From NCBI RefSeq assembly GCF_003334405.1, contig NZ_QOWM01000027.1: a stretch of 35,140 nucleotides of DNA. One strand, given 5' to 3'. A program made the translations under genes and the position numbers. This DNA comes from Escherichia coli (GTDB lineage Bacteria > Pseudomonadota > Gammaproteobacteria > Enterobacterales > Enterobacteriaceae). Positions within the stretch are counted from its first letter, which is position 1, and every line of letters starts with the position of its first letter. Positions 1-35,140 of the stretch are shown here, piece by piece. The notes beneath the pieces were generated by a model that was not told the DNA's origin, did no database searches, and worked only from the letters and a program-made list of their open reading frames with translations.

Positions 1-200
1 CAGATGCCTGATGCGACGCTAACGCGTCTTATCAGGCCTACAAATTCCCGCGCCATCCGTAGGCCGGATAAGGCGTTCACGCCGCATCCGGCAGTCGTGC
101 GCAGATGCCTGATGCGACGCTAACGCGTCTTATCAGACCTACAAATTCTCACGCCATCCGTAGGCCGGATAAGGCGTTCACGCCGCATCCGGCAGTCGTG
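1..200. repeat. REP/BIME array: two tandem ~101-bp units, each with a pair of REP palindromes
   Basis: cagatgcctgatgcgacgc begins at 1 and again at 102; each unit contains gcctgatgcgacgc...cttatcaggcctac and gtaggccggataaggcgttcacgccgcatccggc, matching the E. coli REP consensus. Lies downstream of mhpE. Confidence 0.85.
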
Positions 201-241
201 CTGGGATGGGCATACAAAATGCACGTTCTCGGCAGTCATCA

Positions 242-1251
242 TTATTTGTTGTTGCGCAGATCCAGCGCCACGTCAACGATCATATCCTCCTGGCCGCCAA
301 CCATCCGGCGTTTGCCCAGCTCAACGAGAATATCCACCGCACTTAAGCCATAACGCGCCGCCGCCGTTTCACAGTGACGCAGGAAGCTCGAGTAAACACC
401 AGCGTATCCCAGCGCCAGCGTTTCGCGATCGACTCGTACCGGTCGATCCTGCAACGGACGCACCAGGTCGTCGGCGGCATCCATTAACGCATAGAGATCG
501 GTCCCATGCTGCCAGCCCAGTTTATCCGCGGCGGCAATAAACACTTCCAGCGGTGCGTTACCTGCGCCCGCGCCCATTCCCGCGAGGCTGGCGTCGATTC
601 GGTCGCAGCCCTCTTCCACCGCCGCGATAGAGTTCGCCACGCCAAGACTCAGGTTATGGTGAGCGTGCATGCCAGTTTGCGTTTCTGGTTTCAGCTCTGC
701 TTTCAGGGCGCGGAAACGGTCACGGATATCGCTCATGTTCATCGCACCGCCAGAATCCACCACATAAATACAGGTCGCACCGTAGCCTTCCATCAGCTTT
801 GCCTGCTTGGCGAGATTCTCCGGCGTGGTCATATGGCTCATCATCAGAAAACCAACGGTGTCCATTCCGAGCTCGCGGGCATACTGAATATGCTGGGCGG
901 AAACATCAGCTTCGGTACAGTGCGTTGCCACACGAACCACCCGCGCGCCAGCCTGCCAGGCATTTTTCAGATCGTGAATAGTGCCGATTCCTGGCAGCAA
1001 CAACGTCGCGATTTTGGCGTGCTTCACCACATCCGCCGCCGCTTCAATCCATTCAAGGTCGCTATGTGCGCCGAAACCATAGTTAAAGCTGGAACCTTGC
1101 AAACCGTCGCCGTGGGCCACTTCAATCGAATCCACGCGGGCATCGTCCAGTGCTTTGGCAATCTGGCGAACGTTTTCCAGCGAATACTGATGACGAATGG
1201 CGTGCATACCGTCACGCAATGTGACGTCCGAGATATAAAGTTTTTTACCGT

Positions 1252-1255
<4 letters not shown>
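242..1255 (-). CDS. mhpE: 4-hydroxy-2-oxovalerate aldolase
   Basis: 337-aa ORF ([25 protein letters not shown]...), HMG-CoA-lyase-like aldolase fold; start overlaps mhpF stop by 4 nt; position in mhp cluster. Confidence 0.93.
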
Positions 1256-3017
<1,762 letters not shown>

Positions 3018-13197: not shown

Positions 13198-13207
13198 GCA
13201 ATCAATG

Positions 13208-13237
13208 TCGGATGCGGCGCGAGCGCCTTATCCGACC
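13208..13237. repeat. Single REP-like palindromic unit in the lacY-lacA spacer
   Basis: tcggatgcggcgcgagcgccttatccgacc resembles the REP consensus gccggatgcggcg..gcgccttatccggcc. Confidence 0.5.
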
Positions 13238-13262
13238 AACATATCATAACGGAGTGATCGCA

Positions 13263-13886: not shown

Positions 13887-13950
13887 GCCTGATACGCTGC
13901 GCTTATCAGGCCTACAAGTTCAGCGATCTACATTAGCCGCATCCGGCATG
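13887..13950. repeat. REP pair between convergent lacA and cynX
   Basis: gcctgatacgctgcgcttatcaggcctac ... gccgcatccggcatg. Confidence 0.75.
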
Positions 13951-16324: not shown

Positions 16325-16432
16325 CGTTAACCTCTGTCTGTCTCTGGAATGAGAGGCAGACTACTCGCCGATTGTCATAAGGTAAAAGTCTCATTTATGA
16401 TGAGTTCCATTGGATTTACTTATAGGTTGCGA

Positions 16433-17332
16433 ATGCTCTCTCGACATATCAATTATTTTCTTGCCGTGGCTGAACATGGCAGCTTCACCCGTGCCGCCAG
16501 TGCGTTGCACGTCTCCCAACCTGCGCTTTCCCAGCAGATTCGCCAGTTAGAGGAGAGTTTAGGCGTGCCGCTGTTTGACCGTAGCGGGCGAACGATTCGT
16601 CTCACTGATGCAGGAGAAGTCTGGCGACAGTACGCCAGCCGGGCGTTACAGGAACTGGGGGCGGGTAAACGGGCGATTCATGATGTTGCCGATCTGACGC
16701 GAGGATCGCTGCGTATCGCCGTCACCCCCACCTTTACGAGCTACTTTATCGGCCCCTTAATGGCGGATTTCTATGCGCGCTATCCCAGCATCACGCTCCA
16801 GCTACAGGAAATGTCGCAGGAGAAAATCGAGGATATGCTTTGCCGCGACGAGTTGGACGTTGGGATTGCCTTCGCGCCTGTGCATTCGCCGGAGCTGGAG
16901 GCAATTCCTTTACTGACAGAAAGTTTAGCGTTAGTCGTGGCGCAACATCATCCGCTGGCCGTCCATGAACAGGTGGCGTTGAGTCGCTTGCATGATGAAA
17001 AACTGGTCCTGCTCAGCGCGGAATTTGCCACCAGAGAGCAAATTGACCACTACTGCGAGAAAGCGGGGCTACATCCACAGGTGGTCATTGAGGCGAACTC
17101 AATTAGCGCGGTTCTGGAGCTGATTCGCCGCACTTCCCTTTCCACATTGTTACCAGCAGCGATTGCCACACAACATGACGGGCTTAAAGCTATTTCTCTT
17201 GCCCCGCCACTACTGGAGAGAACGGCGGTTTTGTTGCGGCGGAAAAATAGCTGGCAGACAGCCGCCGCGAAGGCATTTTTGCACATGGCGTTGGATAAAT
17301 GCGCGGTTGTTGGCGGAAATGAATCACGGTAG
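16433..17332 (+). CDS. cynR: LysR-family transcriptional activator of the cyn operon
   Basis: Recognised 299-aa protein starts [41 protein letters not shown] (HTH) at ATG 16433; ORF-track entry is over-extended to 16349; divergent from cynT. Confidence 0.9.
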
Positions 17333-17848
17333 CCGCTGACACAGGTCTGCGGCTGGAATTGCCTGATGCGCTACGCTTATCAGGCCTACGAGTTCAGTGC
17401 TCTACGTAGGCCGGATAAGGCGTTCACGCCGCATCCGGCATAAACTACAGCTGGCAGACAGCCGCTGCGAAGGCATTTTTGCACATGGCGTTGGAGGAAT
17501 GCGCGGTTGTTGGCGGGAATGAATCACGGTAGCCGCTGACACAGATCAGCGGCTGGAATTGCCTGATGCGCTACGCTTATCAGGCCTACGAGTTCAGTGC
17601 TCTACGTAGGCCGGATAAGGCGTTCACGCCGCATCCGGCATAAACTACAGCTGGCAGACAGCCGCTGCGAAGGCATTTTTGCACATGGCGTTGGAGGAAT
17701 GCGCGGTTGTTGGCGGGAATGAATCACGGTAGCCGCTGACACAGATCAGCGGCTGGAATTGCCTGATGCGCTACGCTTATCAGGCCTACGAGTTCAGTGC
17801 TCTACGTAGGCCGGATAAGGCGTTCACGCCGCATCCGGCATAAACTAA
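17249..17848. repeat. Three tandem 200-bp repeat units, each = last ~84 bp of cynR + a small hairpin + a REP pair
   Basis: ctggcagaca at 17251, 17451, 17651 and gaatcacggtagccgctgac at 17321, 17521, 17721 (period exactly 200). Units 2 and 3 are identical; unit 1 (the functional cynR 3' end) differs at ~7 positions. Confidence 0.9.
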
Positions 17849-17868
17849 GCTCGCTGTAACCCAGTCGT

Positions 17869-19152
17869 TCAACGTTTGTAATCGATGGCTTCTGGCTGCT
17901 CCAGATATACGGTGGTTTGTGCCGGTTGTGTGCTGGCAATCACCTTGCCGCCACGTACCGAATAACGTACCGGAACCTGACGGCGCAGCGCATCAAACCC
18001 ATTTTCAGCCGGCAGGATAATCAGGTTGGCGCTGTTTCCGGCGGCAATGCCGTAATCCTGCAAATTCAACGTCCTTGCGCTGTGGTGGGTGATTAAATTC
18101 AGGCCATCGTTAATCTGCCCGTAGCCCATCAACTGGCAAACATGCAGCCCCATATGCAGCACTTGCAGCATATTCGCCGTTCCCAGCGGATACCACGGAT
18201 CGAAGACATCATCGTGACCAAAGCAGACGTTAATGCCGGACTCCAGCATCTCTTTAACGCGCGTGATGCCGCGACGTTTTGGATACGTATCGAAACGTCC
18301 TTGCAGATGAATATTGACCAGCGGGTTGGCGACAAAGTTAATACCGGACATTTTCAGCAAGCGGAACAGGCGTGAGGTATACGCCCCGTTATAGGAGTGC
18401 ATTGCCGTGGTGTGGCTGGCGGTGACTCGCGCGCCCATGCCTTCATGGTGCGCCAGGGCAGCAACTGTTTCGACAAAGCGCGACTGCTCGTCATCGATCT
18501 CATCACAGTGAACGTCGATGAGACGGTCGTATTTTTGCGCCAGGGCGAAGGTTTTATGCAGCGACTCCACGCCGTATTCACGGGTAAATTCAAAATGCGG
18601 AATCGCCCCCACTACATCTGCCCCTAAGCGTAACGCCTCTTCCAGCAACGCTTCACCGTTGGGATACGACAAAATCCCTTCCTGAGGGAAGGCGACGATT
18701 TGCAGATCAATCCACGGCGCGACTTCCTGCTTCACTTCCAGCATTGCTTTCAGCGCAGTTAGCGTTGCATCCGAAACATCGACATGGGTACGCACATGCT
18801 GAATGCCGTTGGCAATCTGCCATTTCAGCGTTTGCCATGCGCGTTGTTTCACATCGTCATGGGTTAATAACGCTTTGCGCTCGGCCCAGCGTTCAATGCC
18901 TTCAAACAGCGTGCCGGACTGATTCCAGTTCGGTTGTCCGGCGGTTTGCGTGGTGTCCAGGTGAATATGTGGCTCCACAAACGGCGGTATAACTAAACCT
19001 TGTTCGGCATCCAGGCTGTTTTCAGTTATGGGCATCACGCCGGATTGCGCATCAATGGCGCTGATTTTTCCGTCCTGCAGATGAATCTGCCACAGCCCCT
19101 CTTCGCCTGGTAACCGGGCGTTAATAATTGTTTGTAAAGCGTTATTCGACAC
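17869..19152 (-). CDS. codA: Cytosine deaminase
   Basis: Recognised 427-aa protein begins (GTG start at 19150..19152) [37 protein letters not shown]...; amidohydrolase HxH motif ([10 protein letters not shown]); ORF-track entry extended 5 codons to an upstream ATG. Confidence 0.9.
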
Positions 19153-20401
19153 TGTTAGCCTCCACATGCGTCATTGCTGCTGTCGTTTTACGATTCAAAA
19201 TCGGGTTAAGGATCAGATAGCTCAGCGCGCCACCTAATACCGCGTTGACCGGAACAATTCCCGGTAACCAGTGGCCTGCAGCAATCCCCAAGGCGACCGC
19301 CAGAATCGCCACCCAATTGACACTCATCATACGCGTGGTCGCAAAGTGCTCATAGCGGCGACGGTTCATCAGATAGTCGGCGATGATCACGCCACCCACT
19401 GGAGGAATAGCTGCCGAAAGGAAGGTCAACCAGCCGACAAAATTGTTATACAGCCATAATGCGCAGACCGTACCGATAATACCGTTGATTACCGAAAGGG
19501 TTTTGCTCGACATCCCGGTAATGTTGGCGAAACCTAAACCCGACGCATAGAGTGCGTTATCGTTGGTGGTCCAGATATTCAGCCCCAGCACCACAATCGC
19601 AGGCAGCAGCAGGCCCTGAGCAATCATCACATCAGAGATATCCGCCATGCCCAGTGCCGCAGCGCCCGCTGCACCGAAAATAAACATCAACGAGTTGCCG
19701 AGGAAAAAGGCCACCATCGCCACCAGCACCGCCAGTTTGGCATTGCGACCAAACCGGACAAAGTCAGCGGTGAGCGTACCCGCACTGATAAATGACCCCA
19801 CAACCAGCGCCAGCGCGACATTGAAATCTAACGGTTGTGCGGGAACGACCGCTTTTAATGCGTCCAGGCCGCCCATGCCGTTAACAGCCAGCCACACGGA
19901 ATAACCGCCCAGGCAGGCGATAGCCGGAACCGCAATCACCGAAAGAACCGTCAGCGCCGAAATGCCAAAAAAGACGGTGACGGTCATCAGTAAACCGGAA
20001 ACGGCAATCAGCAAATTAATATCCAGCCCGGTTGCCTTACCCACCGGAATGGCAAACATCGCCACACCGACGCCAAACCAGCCAACCTGAGTTCCGCCCA
20101 GTAGCAGTGAAGGCAGCCATGAGCCTTTAACACCAAACGAGAAGCGAGCAAGAAGATGAGTGGTCAGGCCGGTTTTTGCGCCAATGTAACCGAGAAATGA
20201 AGTGTAAATACCGAGGAGAAGATTACCGATGAGAACTGCGAGGAAGAAATCATGATAGCTAAGACCGGTTCCGAGAGTGCCGCCGGTCCACATACTGGCG
20301 GAAAAGAAGGTTAATCCCAGCATGACGAACGTCAATGCCAATACCCCTTTCCGCGCCGACTGCGGGACTGGCCCCTGGCTAAAGTTGTTATCTTGCGACA
20401 C
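19142..20401 (-). CDS. codB: Cytosine permease (NCS1 family)
   Basis: 419-aa [44 protein letters not shown]...; first codon is GTG (cac on + strand at 20399..20401); 11-nt overlap with codA. Confidence 0.93.
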
Positions 20402-20467
20402 GAAATTCCCCCTTTTTGCTGTTTGAAACCCAAAAAATCCGCCGCATTCTATTCATCTGAAGATAAA

Positions 20468-20483
20468 AAGCAATCGTTTTCGT
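20468..20483 (-). promoter_or_regulatory. Candidate PurR box upstream of codB
   Basis: Minus strand reads ACGAAAACGATTGCTT, close to the PurR operator consensus ACGCAAACGTTTTCTT; 67 bp upstream of the codB start. Confidence 0.55.
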
Positions 20484-20553
20484 GGGGAAATATATTTTTT
20501 ATATGAATGAGTGCAAAAAGGTGGGGGAAAAATTATCGGTGTAAAAACAGTGG

Positions 20554-20632
20554 GTAGGCCTGATAAGACGCGTCAGCGTCGCATCAGGCATCGGCACACA
20601 GTGCCGGATGCACCGCGCGACGCATCCGACAA
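20554..20632. repeat. REP pair between prpE 3' end and the codB promoter
   Basis: gtaggcctgataagacgcgtcagcgtcgcatcaggc ... gccggatgcaccgcgcgacgcatccgac, abutting the prpE stop codon. Confidence 0.8.
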
Positions 20633-20636
20633 TAAC

Positions 20637-22522
20637 CTACTCTTCCATCGCCTGGCGGATCTGATCCAACGACGCAGGATCATCAATGGTCGTCAGATCT
20701 CCAGGATCGCGTCCTTCGCAAATCGCCTGGATCGTGCGGCGCAGCATTTTTCCGGATCGCGTTTTTGGCAATTGCGAGACAAACCAGACGTGCGCCGGGC
20801 GGCCAAAGTTGCCAATCTGGCTGTCCACCAGCGCCATAATCGCCTTCTCTTGCGAGTGCGCCACATCACGATCTTCCAGACTGTCGCTCTCTTTCGGAAT
20901 GACAAACGCCACCGCCACCTGCCCTTTCAGCGCATCTTTCACCCCAACCACCGCCACTTCGGCAACGCCCGGATGGCTGGAGATACTCTCTTCAATCTCG
21001 CGCGTCCCCAGCCGATGCCCGGCAACGTTAATTACATCGTCAGTGCGCCCGAGAATAAAGTGATAACCGTCAGCGTCACGGATGCCCCAGTCAAAGGTGG
21101 CGTACACCGGGCGGGAAAACAGCGACCAGTAAGTCTTCACAAAGCGGCCGTCGTCGCCCCAGATGGTCTGAATACACCCCGGCGGCAGCGGCCCTTCCAC
21201 CACCAGCATCCCTTTCTCGTTGACGCCACACGGTTCGCCGGTGACTTCATTAAGCAACTGCACGTTATAGCCATACATCGGCACACCGGGGCTTCCCAGA
21301 CGCGTCGGCCTGTCGTCCAGACCGCGAGCAATCGCCATAATCGGCCAGCCGGATTCGGTCTGCCAGTAGTTGTCGATGACCGGCACATCCAGCGTATTGC
21401 TCACCCAACTGGCGGTCGGCTCGTCCAGCGGTTCTCCAGCCAGATAGAGCACTTCCAGCGACGAGAGATCGTGTTTGCGAATTTCAGCGGTAGGGAATTT
21501 TTTCAGCACGCGAATGGCGGTCGGCGCTGAGAACATCCGGCTAACCTGATATTTCTCGACGATTTTCCACCACACGCCGCAGTCCGGCCAGGTCGGCAAT
21601 CCTTCGTAAACGATAGTCGCCATCCCCGCCAGCAGCGGCGCGTAAACGATATACGAATGCCCCACCACCCAGCCGATATCCGATGCGCAAAAGAACACGC
21701 TGCCCGCTTTGCCGCCAAAAATGGTGTCCATCGAGGTCGCCAGCGCCACCGCATATCCGCCGACGTCACGCTGCACGCCTTTAGGTTTGCCGGTCGTGCC
21801 GGAAGTGTAGAGAATGCAGGAGGTTTCGTTGGATTCCAGCCACGCCACCGGTACCCGCGCGCCGATGTGTTGATGGCGCAACGACGCGAAATCGACATCC
21901 CGCCCGCTGACGCGCGCCATTTTCGCCAGCCCGCGATCCACCAGCAAAACATGGCGTGGCTGGTGCTGCGCCTGACTTATCGCATCGTCGAGCAATTTTT
22001 ATAGGGAATGATTTTGCCACCGCGCGCTCCGGCATCAGCCGAGACAATCAGCACCGGTTTAGCGTCATCAATTCGCGCCGCCACGCTGTGCGAGGCAAAT
22101 CCACCAAACACCACCGAGTGAATAGCGCCAATGCGCGCGCAGGCCAGCAGAGTAATATGCGCTTCGGCAATCATCGGCATATACACCAGCACCCGATCGC
22201 CGCGCTGCACACCCAATGAACGCAACATTGAGGCCACCGCGTTCACTTCGTCATGCAGCTGACGAAAGGTAAAGGTGCGCTCTTCTTCTGTTTCCGAAGA
22301 GACGGCAATCAGCGCCAGCGCCTCTGGCTGTTTCTCCAGCCAGCGGTCGATGGCGTTGTGGCACAAGTTGGTTCGGCCTTCACAAAACCAACGGGCAAAC
22401 GGCGGATTGCTGTGATCGAGCGTTTGCGTAAAGGGCGTCTGCCAGTCAATACGCCGGGCCTGCTCGGCCCAGAACTGCTCCGGTTCGTTAATCGAACGCT
22501 GATAAAATTCGCTAAAAGACAT
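20637..22522 (-). pseudogene. prpE: Propionyl-CoA synthetase gene interrupted by a frameshift (two ORFs: 21977..22522 and 20637..21995)
   Basis: N-terminal ORF MSFSEFYQRSINEPEQFWAEQARR... ends ...GGKIIPYKNCSTMR-stop; the downstream ORF continues LDDAISQAQHQPRHVLLVDRG... with the AMP-binding motif YTSGTTGKPKG. The frames differ by one nucleotide at an A5 run (T5 at 21996..22000 on +). Confidence 0.8.
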
Positions 22523-22561
22523 AATGCTCTCCTGTTGAACTTACGCCTTACCGCCGTTTAC

Positions 22562-24013
22562 TTAAATGACGTACAGGTCGAGATACTCATTGACCGGCAT
22601 CTGTTCCAGGCGAGCTCTGTCGAGAGAAACCTCCAGAATGCGCTGCTGTTGGCGAGTCGGGAACTGGCGCGCGAGATTGATTTTGAATTTATCGACCAGT
22701 TTCGGAATACCATCCTGACGGCGGCGAGCATGACCAATGGGGTACTCCACCACCACTTCTTCAAATCGTGTGCCGTCGGTGAACTCAAGGGTAATGGCAT
22801 TGGCGATGGCGCGTTTTTCCGGGTCGTGGTAGTCAGCGGTAAATGCCGGATCTTCAAAGCAATTGATCTTCTCGCGCAGGGCGTCAATGCGTTTATCTTG
22901 CGCAACGTTGTCCTCGTAATCTGCCGCCGTTAAGCGCCCGAATAGCAGCGGGATCGCCACCATGTACTGAATGCAGTGATCGCGGTCTGCCGGGTTATTG
23001 AGCGGCCCTTTTTTGTCGATGATGCGAATACAGGCTTCGTGGGTGCGAATGGTCACTTTTTCGATATCCGCCGCCGTTTTGCCTGCTGCCTGCATCTGTT
23101 CATAGAGCGTCATCGCTGCTTCAACTGCCGTCTGGGAGTGGAACTCCGCCGGGAAGGAGATTTTGAACAGCACATTTTCCATAACGTAGGAACCGTACGG
23201 GCGCTGGAAGCGGAACGATTCACCTTTAAAGGAGACGTCGTAGAAGCCCCACACCGGCGCAGTCAGGGCTGACGGGTAACCCATTTCGCCCGTTTTCGCC
23301 ATCAGTGCCAGACGTACCGCGCGGGAAGTGGCATCGCCTGCCGCCCAGGATTTACGCGTGCCGGTGTTCGGCGCATGGCGATAGGTGCGCAGCGACTGAC
23401 CGTCCACCCACGCCAGCGAAACGGCGTTGAGAATTTCCTCGCGGGTCAGGCCGAGCATTTCGGCGACCACGGCGGTGGAAGCCACTTTCACTAACAGAAC
23501 GTGGTCGAGGCCGACGCGGTTAAAGGAGTTTTCCAGCGCGATGCAGCCCTGAATTTCATGGGCTTTGATCATTGCGGTCAGCACCTGTTTCATGGTCAAC
23601 GGCGCTTTGCCGCTGGCGACCGCGTTGCGCGAAAGCCAGTCCGCCGTTGCCAGAATGCCGCCGAGGTTGTCGGAAGGATGGCCCCACTCCGCCGCCAGCC
23701 AGGTATCGTTGAAATCGAGCCAGCGGATCATCGCGCCGATGTTAAATGCCGCCTGGACGGGGTCGAGCTGGAACTGAGTTCCGGGGACGCGCACGCCGTT
23801 GGGTACGACGGTGCCGGGAACAATTGGCCCCAGCAGTTTTTTACAGGCCGGGTATTCGAGAGCTTCCAGACCGCAGCCGAGCGTGTCGAGCAGGCAGTAA
23901 TGTGCGGTGTCGTAGGCCACTTTAGAGCTGATTTCGTAGTTCATGACGTAATCGACGATATCAACGATTTCACGATCAAATTCCGGGCGGATGTTGTTGA
24001 TTTGAGCTGACAT
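22562..24013 (-). CDS. prpD: 2-methylcitrate dehydratase
   Basis: 483-aa [62 protein letters not shown]... Confidence 0.95.
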
Positions 24014-24046
24014 TGGGTACGTTTCCTTATTGTTATTCGTAGAGGT

Positions 24047-25216
24047 TTACTGGCGCTTATCCAGCGCGACAAACGGGCGGTCTTCCGGTCCAACATAATT
24101 GGCGGAAGGACGGATAATTTTGTTGTCCTGACGTTGTTCGATAATGTGCGCCGCCCAGCCGGTGACGCGGGCGATAACAAACAGTGGTGTGAACATCTCG
24201 GTGGGAACGCCCATCATGTTGTAGGAAACAGCAGAGAACCAGTCGAGATTGGGGAACATCTTTTTGCTCTCCCACATCACCGTTTCCAGGCGATCGGCGA
24301 TGTTGTACATCTTCAGCGAGCCGCCTTCCTGCGAGAGCTGCTTCGCCACACGTTTAATCACCTGGTGGCGCGGGTCAGCGATGGTGTAAACCGGATGACC
24401 AAAACCAATGACCACTTCTTTGTTTTCCACGCGCTTGCGGATATCTGCTTCGGCTTCGTCCGGCGTTTCGTAGCGTTGCTGGATCTCCAGCGACACTTCA
24501 TTCGCCCCGCCGTGTTTTGGCCCGCGCAGTGCGCCAATCGCGCCAATAATCGCGGAATACATATCAGAGCCGGTGCCCGCAATCACCCGACTGGTAAAGG
24601 TGGAGGCGTTAAACTCGTGTTCGGCGTACAGCACCAGCGAGATATGCATCGCCTTTTCCCAGCTTTGCGATGGCTTTTCGCCGTGCAGCAGATGCAGGAA
24701 GTGACCGCCGATGGAGTCGTCATCGGTTTCCGGTTGGATGCGTTCGCCGTTGTGGCTGTAGTGATACCAATAAAGGAGAATCGAGCTAAGCGACGCCAGC
24801 AGTTTGTCGGCAATATCCCGCGCGCCAGAGACGGTATGCCCCTCTTTTTCTGGCAGCGTGCAGCCGAGCGCGGAAACACCGGTGCGCATAACATCCATCG
24901 GGTGCGACGCCGCCGGTAAGGCTTCCAGCACGGTACGCACGTTAGCCGGTAAACCGCGCAGGGCTTTCAGTTTCGTTTTGTAAGCGGCGAGTTCGTCACG
25001 GGTCGGCAGTTTGCCGTGGATCAGCAGATGCGCCACTTCTTCAAATTCGCAATGTTTCGCCAGATCAAGAATATCGTAGCCGCGGTAATGCAGGTCATTG
25101 CCACTTTTACCCACGGTGCAGAGCGCCGTATTGCCCGCCGGAACGCCAGAAAGTGCCACAGATTTTTTCGGTTTAATGACATGGGTACTGTTTTGCAGGA
25201 TCGTTGTGTCGCTCAT
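24047..25216 (-). CDS. prpC: 2-methylcitrate synthase
   Basis: 389-aa [56 protein letters not shown]..., citrate-synthase family. Confidence 0.95.
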
Positions 25217-25257
25217 GTTGTCCTCGTCATTGTTATCATTTGTAGGGTCGAGATTGT

Positions 25258-25536
25258 TGTCGGATGCGACGCTATGCGTCTTATCCGACCTACAGTTCAG
25301 TTCACCCCGTAGGCCTGATAAGTCGCGTCAGCGGCGCATCAGGCATCGGTTGTCGGATGCGACGCTATGCGTCTTATCCGACCTACAGTTCAGTGCACCC
25401 CGTAGGCCTGATAAGTCACGTCAGCGGCGCATCAGGCATCGGTTGTCGGATGCGACGCCATCCGTCTTATCCGACCTACAGTTCAGTGCACCTCGTAGGC
25501 CTGATAAGTCGCGTCAGCGACGCATCAGGCATCGGC
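25258..25536. repeat. REP/BIME array: three tandem 93-bp units in the prpC-prpB spacer
   Basis: tgtcggatgcgacgc at 25258, 25351, 25444; each unit carries two REP palindromes (ggatgcgacgctatgcgtcttatccgacctac / gtaggcctgataagtcgcgtcagcggcgcatcaggc); units differ at a few positions. Confidence 0.9.
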
Positions 25537-25562
25537 TGTCGAATACAATCAACGGGCGTTTT

Positions 25563-26453
25563 TTATTTCACCTGGCTACGGGCAAACAGGTTGTCGAGCT
25601 TCTCTTCGTACTGGTAGTAGTTGATGCTTTCGTACAGCTCGTTGCGGGTCTGCATGGTGTCGATGACGCTTTTCTGCGTGCCTTCCTGGCGCAGGACGTT
25701 GTAGACATGTTCAGCGGCGCGGTTCATGGCGCGGAACGCTGAAAGTGGGTACAGCGCCATTGCGACATGGGCGCTGCGTAATTCGTCGGTGGTAAACAGC
25801 GGCGTGGCACCAAATTCGGTGATGTTGGCGAGGATCGGCACCTGCACCGCATCGGCAAACTGGCGGTACATGGCGAGTTCGGTAATCGCCTCCGGGAACA
25901 ACATCTCGGCACCCGCTTCAACATAGGCCTGCGCACGCTCGATCGCCGCATCCAGCCCCTCTACCGCCAGAGCATCGGTGCGCGCCATGATCACAAAATC
26001 AGGATCGGTTTTCGCATCCACCGCCGCGCGGATCCGATCCACCATCTCTTCTTTCGAGACGATCGCTTTATTCGGACGATGACCGCAGCGTTTCGCACCA
26101 ACCTGATCTTCAATATGCAATCCTGCCGCACCGGCTTTAATCATCGATTTCACGGTGCGCGCCACGTTAAAGGCCGAAGAACCAAAACCGATATCCGCAT
26201 CCACCAGCAGCGGCAGCGAACAAACGTCGGTGATACGGCGAATGTCGGTCAGCACATCATCAAGGGTAGAAATACCGAGATCGGGCAGCCCCAGCGAACC
26301 TGCCGCCACGCCACCGCCAGAAAGATAAATTGCCTGATATCCGGCACGCTGCGCCAACAGCGCATGATTAGCGTTGATGGTGCCAACAATCTGCAATGGA
26401 TTTTCTTTAGTCAGTGCAGCGCGAAACGCTTTACCTGGAGAGTGTAGAGACAT
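25563..26453 (-). CDS. prpB: 2-methylisocitrate lyase
   Basis: 296-aa [63 protein letters not shown]..., PEP-mutase/isocitrate-lyase family. Confidence 0.95.
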
Positions 26454-26500
26454 AGCCCATCCTTTGTTATCAACTTGTTATTTGCGTTGATAAAGACAAA

Positions 26501-28280: not shown

Positions 28281-28313
28281 TGCCGAATGCAGCGCGAACG
28301 CTTTATCCGGCAT
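28281..28313. repeat. Single REP-like unit between convergent prpR and yahO
   Basis: tgccgaatgcagcgcgaacgctttatccggcat, palindromic and REP-like. Confidence 0.5.
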
Positions 28314-28375
28314 AAATTTCAATAGATGATCACCGATAAACTTACGCATCGGAGATGTTTACATAGGATTCAGAA

Positions 28376-35020: not shown

Positions 35021-35140
35021 GCCTGATGCGCTACGCTTATCAGGCCTACAATTCTCGCGCCACTCGTAGGCCGGATAAGGCGTTCACGCCGCATCCGGCA
35101 ATGGTGACAAATGCCTGATGCGCTACGCTTATCAGGCCTA
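35021..35140. repeat. REP elements upstream of yahI (run off the window end)
   Basis: gcctgatgcgctacgcttatcaggcctac ... gtaggccggataaggcgttcacgccgcatccggc ... gcctgatgcgctacgcttatcaggccta. Confidence 0.85.

Follow-up and report, generated by a model that had tools for sequence, protein, structure and literature searches.

What is the tandem repeat that opens this stretch of Escherichia coli DNA, how far does it extend, and what could it do for the genes on either side of it? The window (the whole stretch analyzed here, 35,140 nt) is the reverse complement of the yahH-to-mhpE region of MG1655, with ~99.97% identity over most of its length. At its left end, a 101-bp unit is repeated head to tail. 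Tandem Repeats Finder (TRF) reports 2.0 copies at positions 1-201, with 97% matches, no indels and a score of 381, and a separate repeat search places the two copies at positions 1-101 and 102-202, with 96% identity. A repeat of this kind cannot be the product of chance. The few substitutions between the units that were pointed out in the initial annotation are present: the string caggcctacaaattcccgcgcc at positions 33-54 reads cagacctacaaattctcacgcc at positions 134-155.

A REP pattern scan identified four canonical REPs at positions 1-202, on strands +, -, +, - and in the order Z2, Y, Z2, Y (Table 1). The array is located downstream of mhpE, as the 337-codon reading frame beside it is annotated as mhpE by RefSeq in genomes 100% identical to window positions 1-1300, and only 48 nt separate the stop codon (positions 242-244) from the first REP. 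The scan, the 101-bp period found by TRF and this annotation together bear out the initial description of the element as a tandem of REP pairs (BIME) downstream of mhpE.

Table 1. Elements of the mhpE-mhpT array inside the window and of its mhpE flank (window coordinates).
Feature	Position	Strand	Basis and remarks
mhpE-mhpT BIME-2 array, in-window part	1..202		last 2.0 of 4.4 tandem 101-bp units; the array runs on leftward past the window edge
End of the preceding unit's tail-to-tail linker, cut by the window start	1..5		L001 units set in register
Z2-type REP, 36 nt, GCCTGATGCGACGCTAACGCGTCTTATCAGGCCTAC, 3' end CTAC	6..41	+	pattern scan; inverted-repeat arms 6-19 and 24-37
Head-to-head linker AAATTCCCGCGCCATCC, 17 nt; loop of the Y-Z2 hairpin in RNA	42..58		sequence; centroid fold
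Y-type REP, 34 nt, + strand reads GTAGGCCGGATAAGGCGTTCACGCCGCATCCGGC	59..92	-	pattern scan; inverted-repeat arms 63-76 and 79-92
Tail-to-tail linker AGTCGTGCGCAGAT, 14 nt	93..106		aligns with the linker of the naRNA4 (Y-l-Z2) consensus (Rfam alignment)
Z2-type REP with G-to-A variant (CAGACCTAC)	107..142	+	pattern scan
Head-to-head linker variant AAATTCTCACGCCATCC	143..159		sequence
Terminal Y-type REP; sole REP in strains with the unexpanded allele	160..193	-	pattern scan; the L003 and L004 alleles are exactly this REP plus the right flank
Unique 48-nt mhpE 3' UTR, from the stop codon to the first REP in the transcript	194..241	-	sequence; ORF end at 242
mhpE (4-hydroxy-2-oxovalerate aldolase), 337-aa ORF, upstream of the array in the transcription sense	242..1255	-	ORF list; RefSeq annotation of identical genomes

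The size of the element was underestimated at first. The count of two units is an artefact of the window edge, because position 1 falls within the array. The number of units further to the left was taken from MG1655 and from the inspected genomes that are identical to window positions 1-1300: in these, the array comprises 4.4 units (9 REPs), and 336 of the 577 bp of spacer lie to the left of position 1. In strain LTE950 (record L001), 100% identical over the same 1300 positions, window position 1 corresponds to position 2501, inside the array, and window positions 1-300 to positions 2501-2800. The mhpT-mhpE spacer of this strain is 577 bp long and identical to that of MG1655, with the 4.4 units at positions 2258-2701 (TRF). 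Read in the window orientation from the mhpT start codon (L001 position 2164), it begins with 93 nt of unique sequence, followed by a first unit of 99 nt that is slightly decayed, three units of 101 nt and the terminal Y REP; the nine REPs are five Y and four Z2. mhpE and mhpT are transcribed in the same direction. A repeat touching a window edge is hence not to be counted as complete. The right edge likewise cuts a REP array (Z1, Y, Z1...) at positions 35021-35140, and an Rfam naRNA4 match is located there, at positions 35069-35138.

BIME-2 elements consist of z2 and y REPs, present in multiple tandem copies whose number at a given locus varies among strains (Ton-Hoang et al. 2012, PMC3333891). 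The array corresponds to this description. Its building blocks are a 34-nt Y REP (GCCGGATGCGGCGTGAACGCCTTATCCGGCCTAC) and a 36-nt Z2 REP (GCCTGATGCGACGCTAACGCGTCTTATCAGGCCTAC), which alternate in orientation and are separated by linkers of 17 nt (head-to-head) and 14 nt (tail-to-tail). It is extragenic, lying between the mhpE stop codon and the mhpT start codon, and it is tandem and variable: 2.0 units are seen in the window and 4.4 in K-12, and alleles of 0.4, 1.4, 2.4, 3.4, 4.4 and 7.4 units exist. All four in-window REPs carry the GTAG/CTAC foot, and their stems are imperfect, with 14-nt arms that are 86% complementary. Both traits, the conserved GTAG at the hairpin foot and the imperfect stem, are needed for recognition by the REP-associated transposase TnpA(REP) (Ton-Hoang et al. 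2012, PMC3333891).

What the mhpE array has in common with the BIME-2 family (Gilson/Bachellier/Hofnung nomenclature; PMC3333891) is thus the alternation of Y and Z2, the short linkers, the extragenic position and the tandem, strain-variable copy number. The loop of its Z2 REPs reads CTAACG or CTTGCG, whereas that of the Z2 REP at window positions 20554-20589 reads CTGACG. BIME-1 elements (Y and Z1; RIP/RIB elements) resemble the array in being extragenic, inverted REP pairs; they differ from it by a 29-nt Z1 REP instead of the 36-nt Z2 REP, by a long L linker that binds IHF and by their presence as single copies instead of a tandem (PMC3333891). Y/Z1 pairs were found by the pattern scan elsewhere in the window, at positions 17361-17839 and 35021-35140. 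Taken jointly, we estimate at about 90% the probability that positions 1-202 belong to a canonical E. coli BIME-2, of which they form the half next to mhpE, and that this element expands and contracts by whole units and would act at both the DNA and the RNA level, as set out below.

The element and its instability are already known and ordinary. Descriptions of REP and BIME-2 arrays date back to the 1980s and 1990s. This very locus is the mhpE-mhpT REP array of K-12, a cluster rich in secondary structure which is a hotspot for lac-amplification junctions and was involved in ~20% of those in the study concerned (Lin, Hastings et al. 2011, PLoS Genet, PMC3161906). The part inside the window is identical to the K-12 array, with no difference in what is visible, although only the two mhpE-proximal units out of 4.4 can be seen. 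No curated REP feature is present in the RefSeq MG1655 feature table for 339-376.5 kb.

The closest relative with a studied function is REP325, or naRNA1-6, between yjdM and yjdN (PMC4550694), likewise a tandem Y-l-Z2 array between co-directional genes. REP325 has six units (12 hairpins), compared to 4.4 units (9 hairpins) for the mhpE-mhpT array. The Rfam naRNA4 model aligns with the mhpE array from end to end, and both hairpins are nearly identical. The tail-to-tail linker aligns with the position of the 'l' linker of the naRNA4 consensus with several mismatches; its sequence is different from that of the naRNA4/REP325 linker and 1 nt longer.

How much the array varies was determined with a query consisting of the K-12 spacer and 300 bp of each flanking gene, compared with 5,426 complete E. 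coli genomes. BLAST coverage is no measure of copy number, because pieces anchored on the left and on the right cover different units of the query with the same subject DNA; the match lengths in the records were used instead. To this end, 60 rows were sampled at even steps down the ranking, and the match length was read per record. A single Y REP was found in 29 of these 60 rows and 4.4 units in 15; 1.4 units (six rows) and 2.4 units (three rows) were less frequent. In six further rows the mhpE-mhpT locus was absent, and one had only a plasmid match. The counts for the whole collection agree with this sample: at least 80% of the query is covered in 2,204 of the 5,426 genomes (40.6%), equivalent to 1.4 units or more, mhpE and mhpF are carried by 4,899, and subtraction leaves ~2,700 genomes with a single REP and ~530 without the locus. 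These are allele counts and not population frequencies, because the collection over-represents laboratory K-12 derivatives.

A synthetic 12-unit query, whose genome ranking was polluted by other BIME-2 loci and which was used only for match lengths, added two alleles, both confirmed by sequence: 3.4 units (7 REPs) in O145 RM9872 and 7.4 units (15 REPs, in an 880-bp spacer) in DLI.5a. The allele series at the mhpE-mhpT locus is therefore 1, 3, 5, 7, 9 and 15 REPs. The comparison of unit numbers with the reference and other strains, proposed at the outset, thus gives a single REP in about half of the genomes and an expanded array in ~41%. The single-REP allele is the commonest one, and the flanking genes are unchanged from 1 to 15 REPs.

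The internal structure of the alleles indicates how they arose. Ec-U1 carries the K-12 array minus 202 bp, and its second unit is a hybrid, derived 5' from K-12 unit 2 and 3' from unit 4. TUM9754 has the two-unit block of the B strain in duplicate. In DLI.5a, three units (303 bp) of the K-12 array are duplicated as a block, with a hybrid unit at the junction. The hybrid units and the gain or loss of whole-unit blocks point to in-register unequal recombination, or replication slippage, between the 101-bp repeats. The single-REP strains (ST131, O157:H7, W and MEI008) carry the terminal Y alone, between the same left and right flanking sequences. Another single-REP allele, that of strain SMN152SH1 (L011), shows a 10-bp duplication (GTAGCGAAAT) adjoining the GTAG foot of the Y REP. 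This foot is where TnpA(REP) recognizes its substrate, and the extra 10 bp may therefore have been left behind by REP processing.

At the DNA level, TnpA(REP), which has BIME-2 elements among its substrates (Ton-Hoang et al. 2012, PMC3333891), would have seeded the founding REP pair. The array would also serve as a site for DNA gyrase binding and cleavage, like other BIME-2 elements: gyrase cleavage sites are enriched in these (Sutormin et al. 2019, PMC6379681). The targeting of the mhpE-mhpT array itself is putative and based on this analogy, and the supplementary files of the same gyrase Topo-seq paper make no mention of mhpE or mhpT.

At the RNA level, the mhpABCDFE message would end in the transcribed array, which would fold into very stable hairpins, as expected from REP325 and the classic REP work. 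The predicted fold of window positions 1-260 in the mRNA sense has an energy of -125.3 kcal/mol, compared to -90.8 ± 5.2 kcal/mol for shuffled sequences (z = -6.7), and none of 200 shuffles was as stable. The centroid structure joins every Y and its Z2 neighbor in one long hairpin. By analogy, such hairpins would block 3'-to-5' exonucleases, stabilizing the upstream mhp mRNA, and would attenuate the read-through into mhpT, partly via Rho. A crude consensus scan revealed no sigma-70-like promoter in the mhpE-mhpT spacer, although a weak or activator-dependent promoter in the conserved 93 nt could escape it, and no report on mhpT transcription describing an mhpT promoter was found in the literature. 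As the spacer shows no sigma-70-like promoter, mhpT plausibly depends on read-through from mhpE.

The model for these effects is again REP325. Lying between yjdM and yjdN, which are tandem genes, this Y/Z2 array limits downstream transcription, partly via Rho, and stabilizes the upstream mRNA; more generally, tandem gene pairs split by REPs show raised upstream/downstream expression ratios, with effects that are context-dependent and non-uniform (Harris et al. 2026, bioRxiv 10.64898/2026.03.23.713779). The roles as terminator and stabilizer are experimental for REP325, whereas for the mhpE-mhpT array they are transferred from it. The likely role of the latter is the stabilization of the upstream mRNA together with an attenuated read-through into mhpT. 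The REP copy number would then tune the ratio of the mhp enzymes to the MhpT transporter.

Other explanations have to be weighed against this one. The Rfam family RF02564 matches the array at window positions 62-139 (+) with 79.3 bits, well above the gathering score of 59.5, and in the full K-12 array every unit is matched, four times on the + strand and, counting scores that reach the gathering threshold, twice on the - strand, with up to 87.2 bits. The units could therefore be read as genes for naRNA4-like nucleoid-associated small RNAs, i.e., Y-l-Z2 double hairpins that bind HU and aid chromosome condensation; the REP325 Y-l-Z2 RNAs are reported to bind HU and condense DNA, and many REPs to be transcribed (Qian et al. 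2015, PMC4550694). However, naRNA4 is itself the Y-l-Z2 unit of the BIME-2 REP325 (PMC4550694), so the match expresses a family resemblance and does not argue for a small-RNA gene; a score is obtained with any Y/Z2 pair, in either direction. The + strand, where the scores are highest, is moreover antisense to the mhpE-to-mhpT transcript, and the promoter scan found no promoter-like site there. On these grounds, an independent sRNA gene at the array was rejected. In addition, approximately half of the genomes have one REP at the mhpE-mhpT locus, and neither deletion nor overexpression of REP325 measurably changed nucleoid compaction (Harris et al. 2026, bioRxiv 10.64898/2026.03.23.713779), and we regard this explanation as very improbable. 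An assembly or duplication artefact, or a gene for a small protein, is hardly credible. A 'hypothetical protein' is annotated over the array in H6 (NZ_CP158503.1) and H46 (NZ_CP158674.1), and ORFs exist at positions 4..123 (+) and 105..353 (+). These ORFs cross the palindromic repeats and run antisense into mhpE, and neither MG1655 nor the other inspected records annotate them. They were rejected as protein-coding, and the calls in H6 and H46 are most likely spurious, running through palindromic repeats. The artefact was discarded as well, as an array identical at the level of the unit recurs in many independently finished genomes, MG1655 included.

More weight should be given to the idea that the cell gains nothing from the extra units, which would be neutral and selfish, arising from TnpA(REP) activity and recombination and tolerated in a non-essential spacer. 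The numbers point in this direction: the single-REP state is the commonest, the REP number goes from 1 to 15 with unchanged flanking genes, and the unit variants have been shuffled by recombination. The REPs are also substrates of a domesticated transposase in the model of Ton-Hoang et al. (2012, PMC3333891). Since approximately half of the E. coli genomes have a single REP at this locus, neutrality of the extra copies is a fair rival; mhp function does not require them, and they may be nearly neutral. Nevertheless, such neutrality is compatible with the BIME-2 identity and would deny only the RNA and gyrase roles. It is opposed by the measurable effects of REPs on neighboring genes, seen in the REP325 work and in genome-wide data (Harris et al. 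2026, bioRxiv 10.64898/2026.03.23.713779), and by the cleavage of BIME-2 elements by gyrase in vivo (PMC6379681). As an account of the array, it is possible but doubtful, and a BIME-2 with probable DNA and RNA roles is the reading retained here.

The instability is not limited to mhpE-mhpT. All six REP loci listed in the initial annotation (1..200, 13887..13950, 17333..17848, 20554..20632, 25258..25536 and 35021..35140) do contain REPs, and the pattern scan added two solitary Y-like REPs at positions 13207-13240 and 28282-28315, the second of them degenerate. The term 'REP-dense' is nonetheless overstated. MG1655 has 355 annotated REP elements per 4.64 Mb (PMC4550694), and six loci in 35.1 kb, with ~2.7 expected, amount to a modest, post-hoc enrichment (Poisson P ~0.056). 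The predicted tendency to copy-number change is better founded: besides the 1 to 15 REPs at mhpE-mhpT, whole-unit differences from MG1655 are seen at three other loci. A 200-bp unit at positions 17249-17851 is present in three copies, compared to two in MG1655; a 93-bp unit at positions 25256-25541 in 3.1 copies, compared to 4.1; and the prpE-codB locus (positions 20554-20632), with one Z2 REP and one degenerate REP, is 92 bp shorter than in MG1655.

The 200-bp units are 97% identical, and their array begins 84 nt inside the 3' end of cynR (ORF 16349..17332, +). Because of this start inside cynR, each unit comprises a copy of the cynR tail, a small hairpin and a Z1 + Y REP pair. The 93-bp units form a tandem BIME between prpB and prpC (MG1655 position), in which a REP variant, GTCGGATGCG...CCGACCTAC, is paired with a Z2-like REP; within this BIME, positions 25312-25383 (-) match the Rfam naRNA4 model.

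The three-unit state of the 200-bp repeat was not encountered among the best 25 matches in the complete genomes of the collection. No complete genome of the collection matches positions 16500-26500 in one 100% piece, the best matches having one 200-bp unit fewer, and none reproduces the window exactly. Positions 17449-25544 (codBA, prpE to prpC) are 99.4-99.7% identical to MG1655, compared to ~99.97-99.98% for the outer thirds. This dip in identity suggests that the DNA belongs to a K-12 relative carrying a recombined segment. Over the 35 kb, the main structural difference from MG1655 is the BIME copy number, which makes the BIME loci handy strain markers and, also, a source of noise in assembly and annotation. 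Beyond good annotation, the significance of the mhpE-mhpT array is small.

A larger consequence would follow if the series from 1 to 15 REPs acted as a heritable, fast-mutating dial on the read-through of the MhpR-induced mhpABCDFE message into mhpT and on the survival of the catabolic mRNA. We consider this rather unlikely, and put it forward tentatively. If true, lineages would differ in the uptake and catabolism of 3-hydroxyphenylpropionate by BIME copy number alone. The same series, lying between co-directional genes, is ready-made material for testing the recently proposed model in which REPs are terminators and stabilizers at once.
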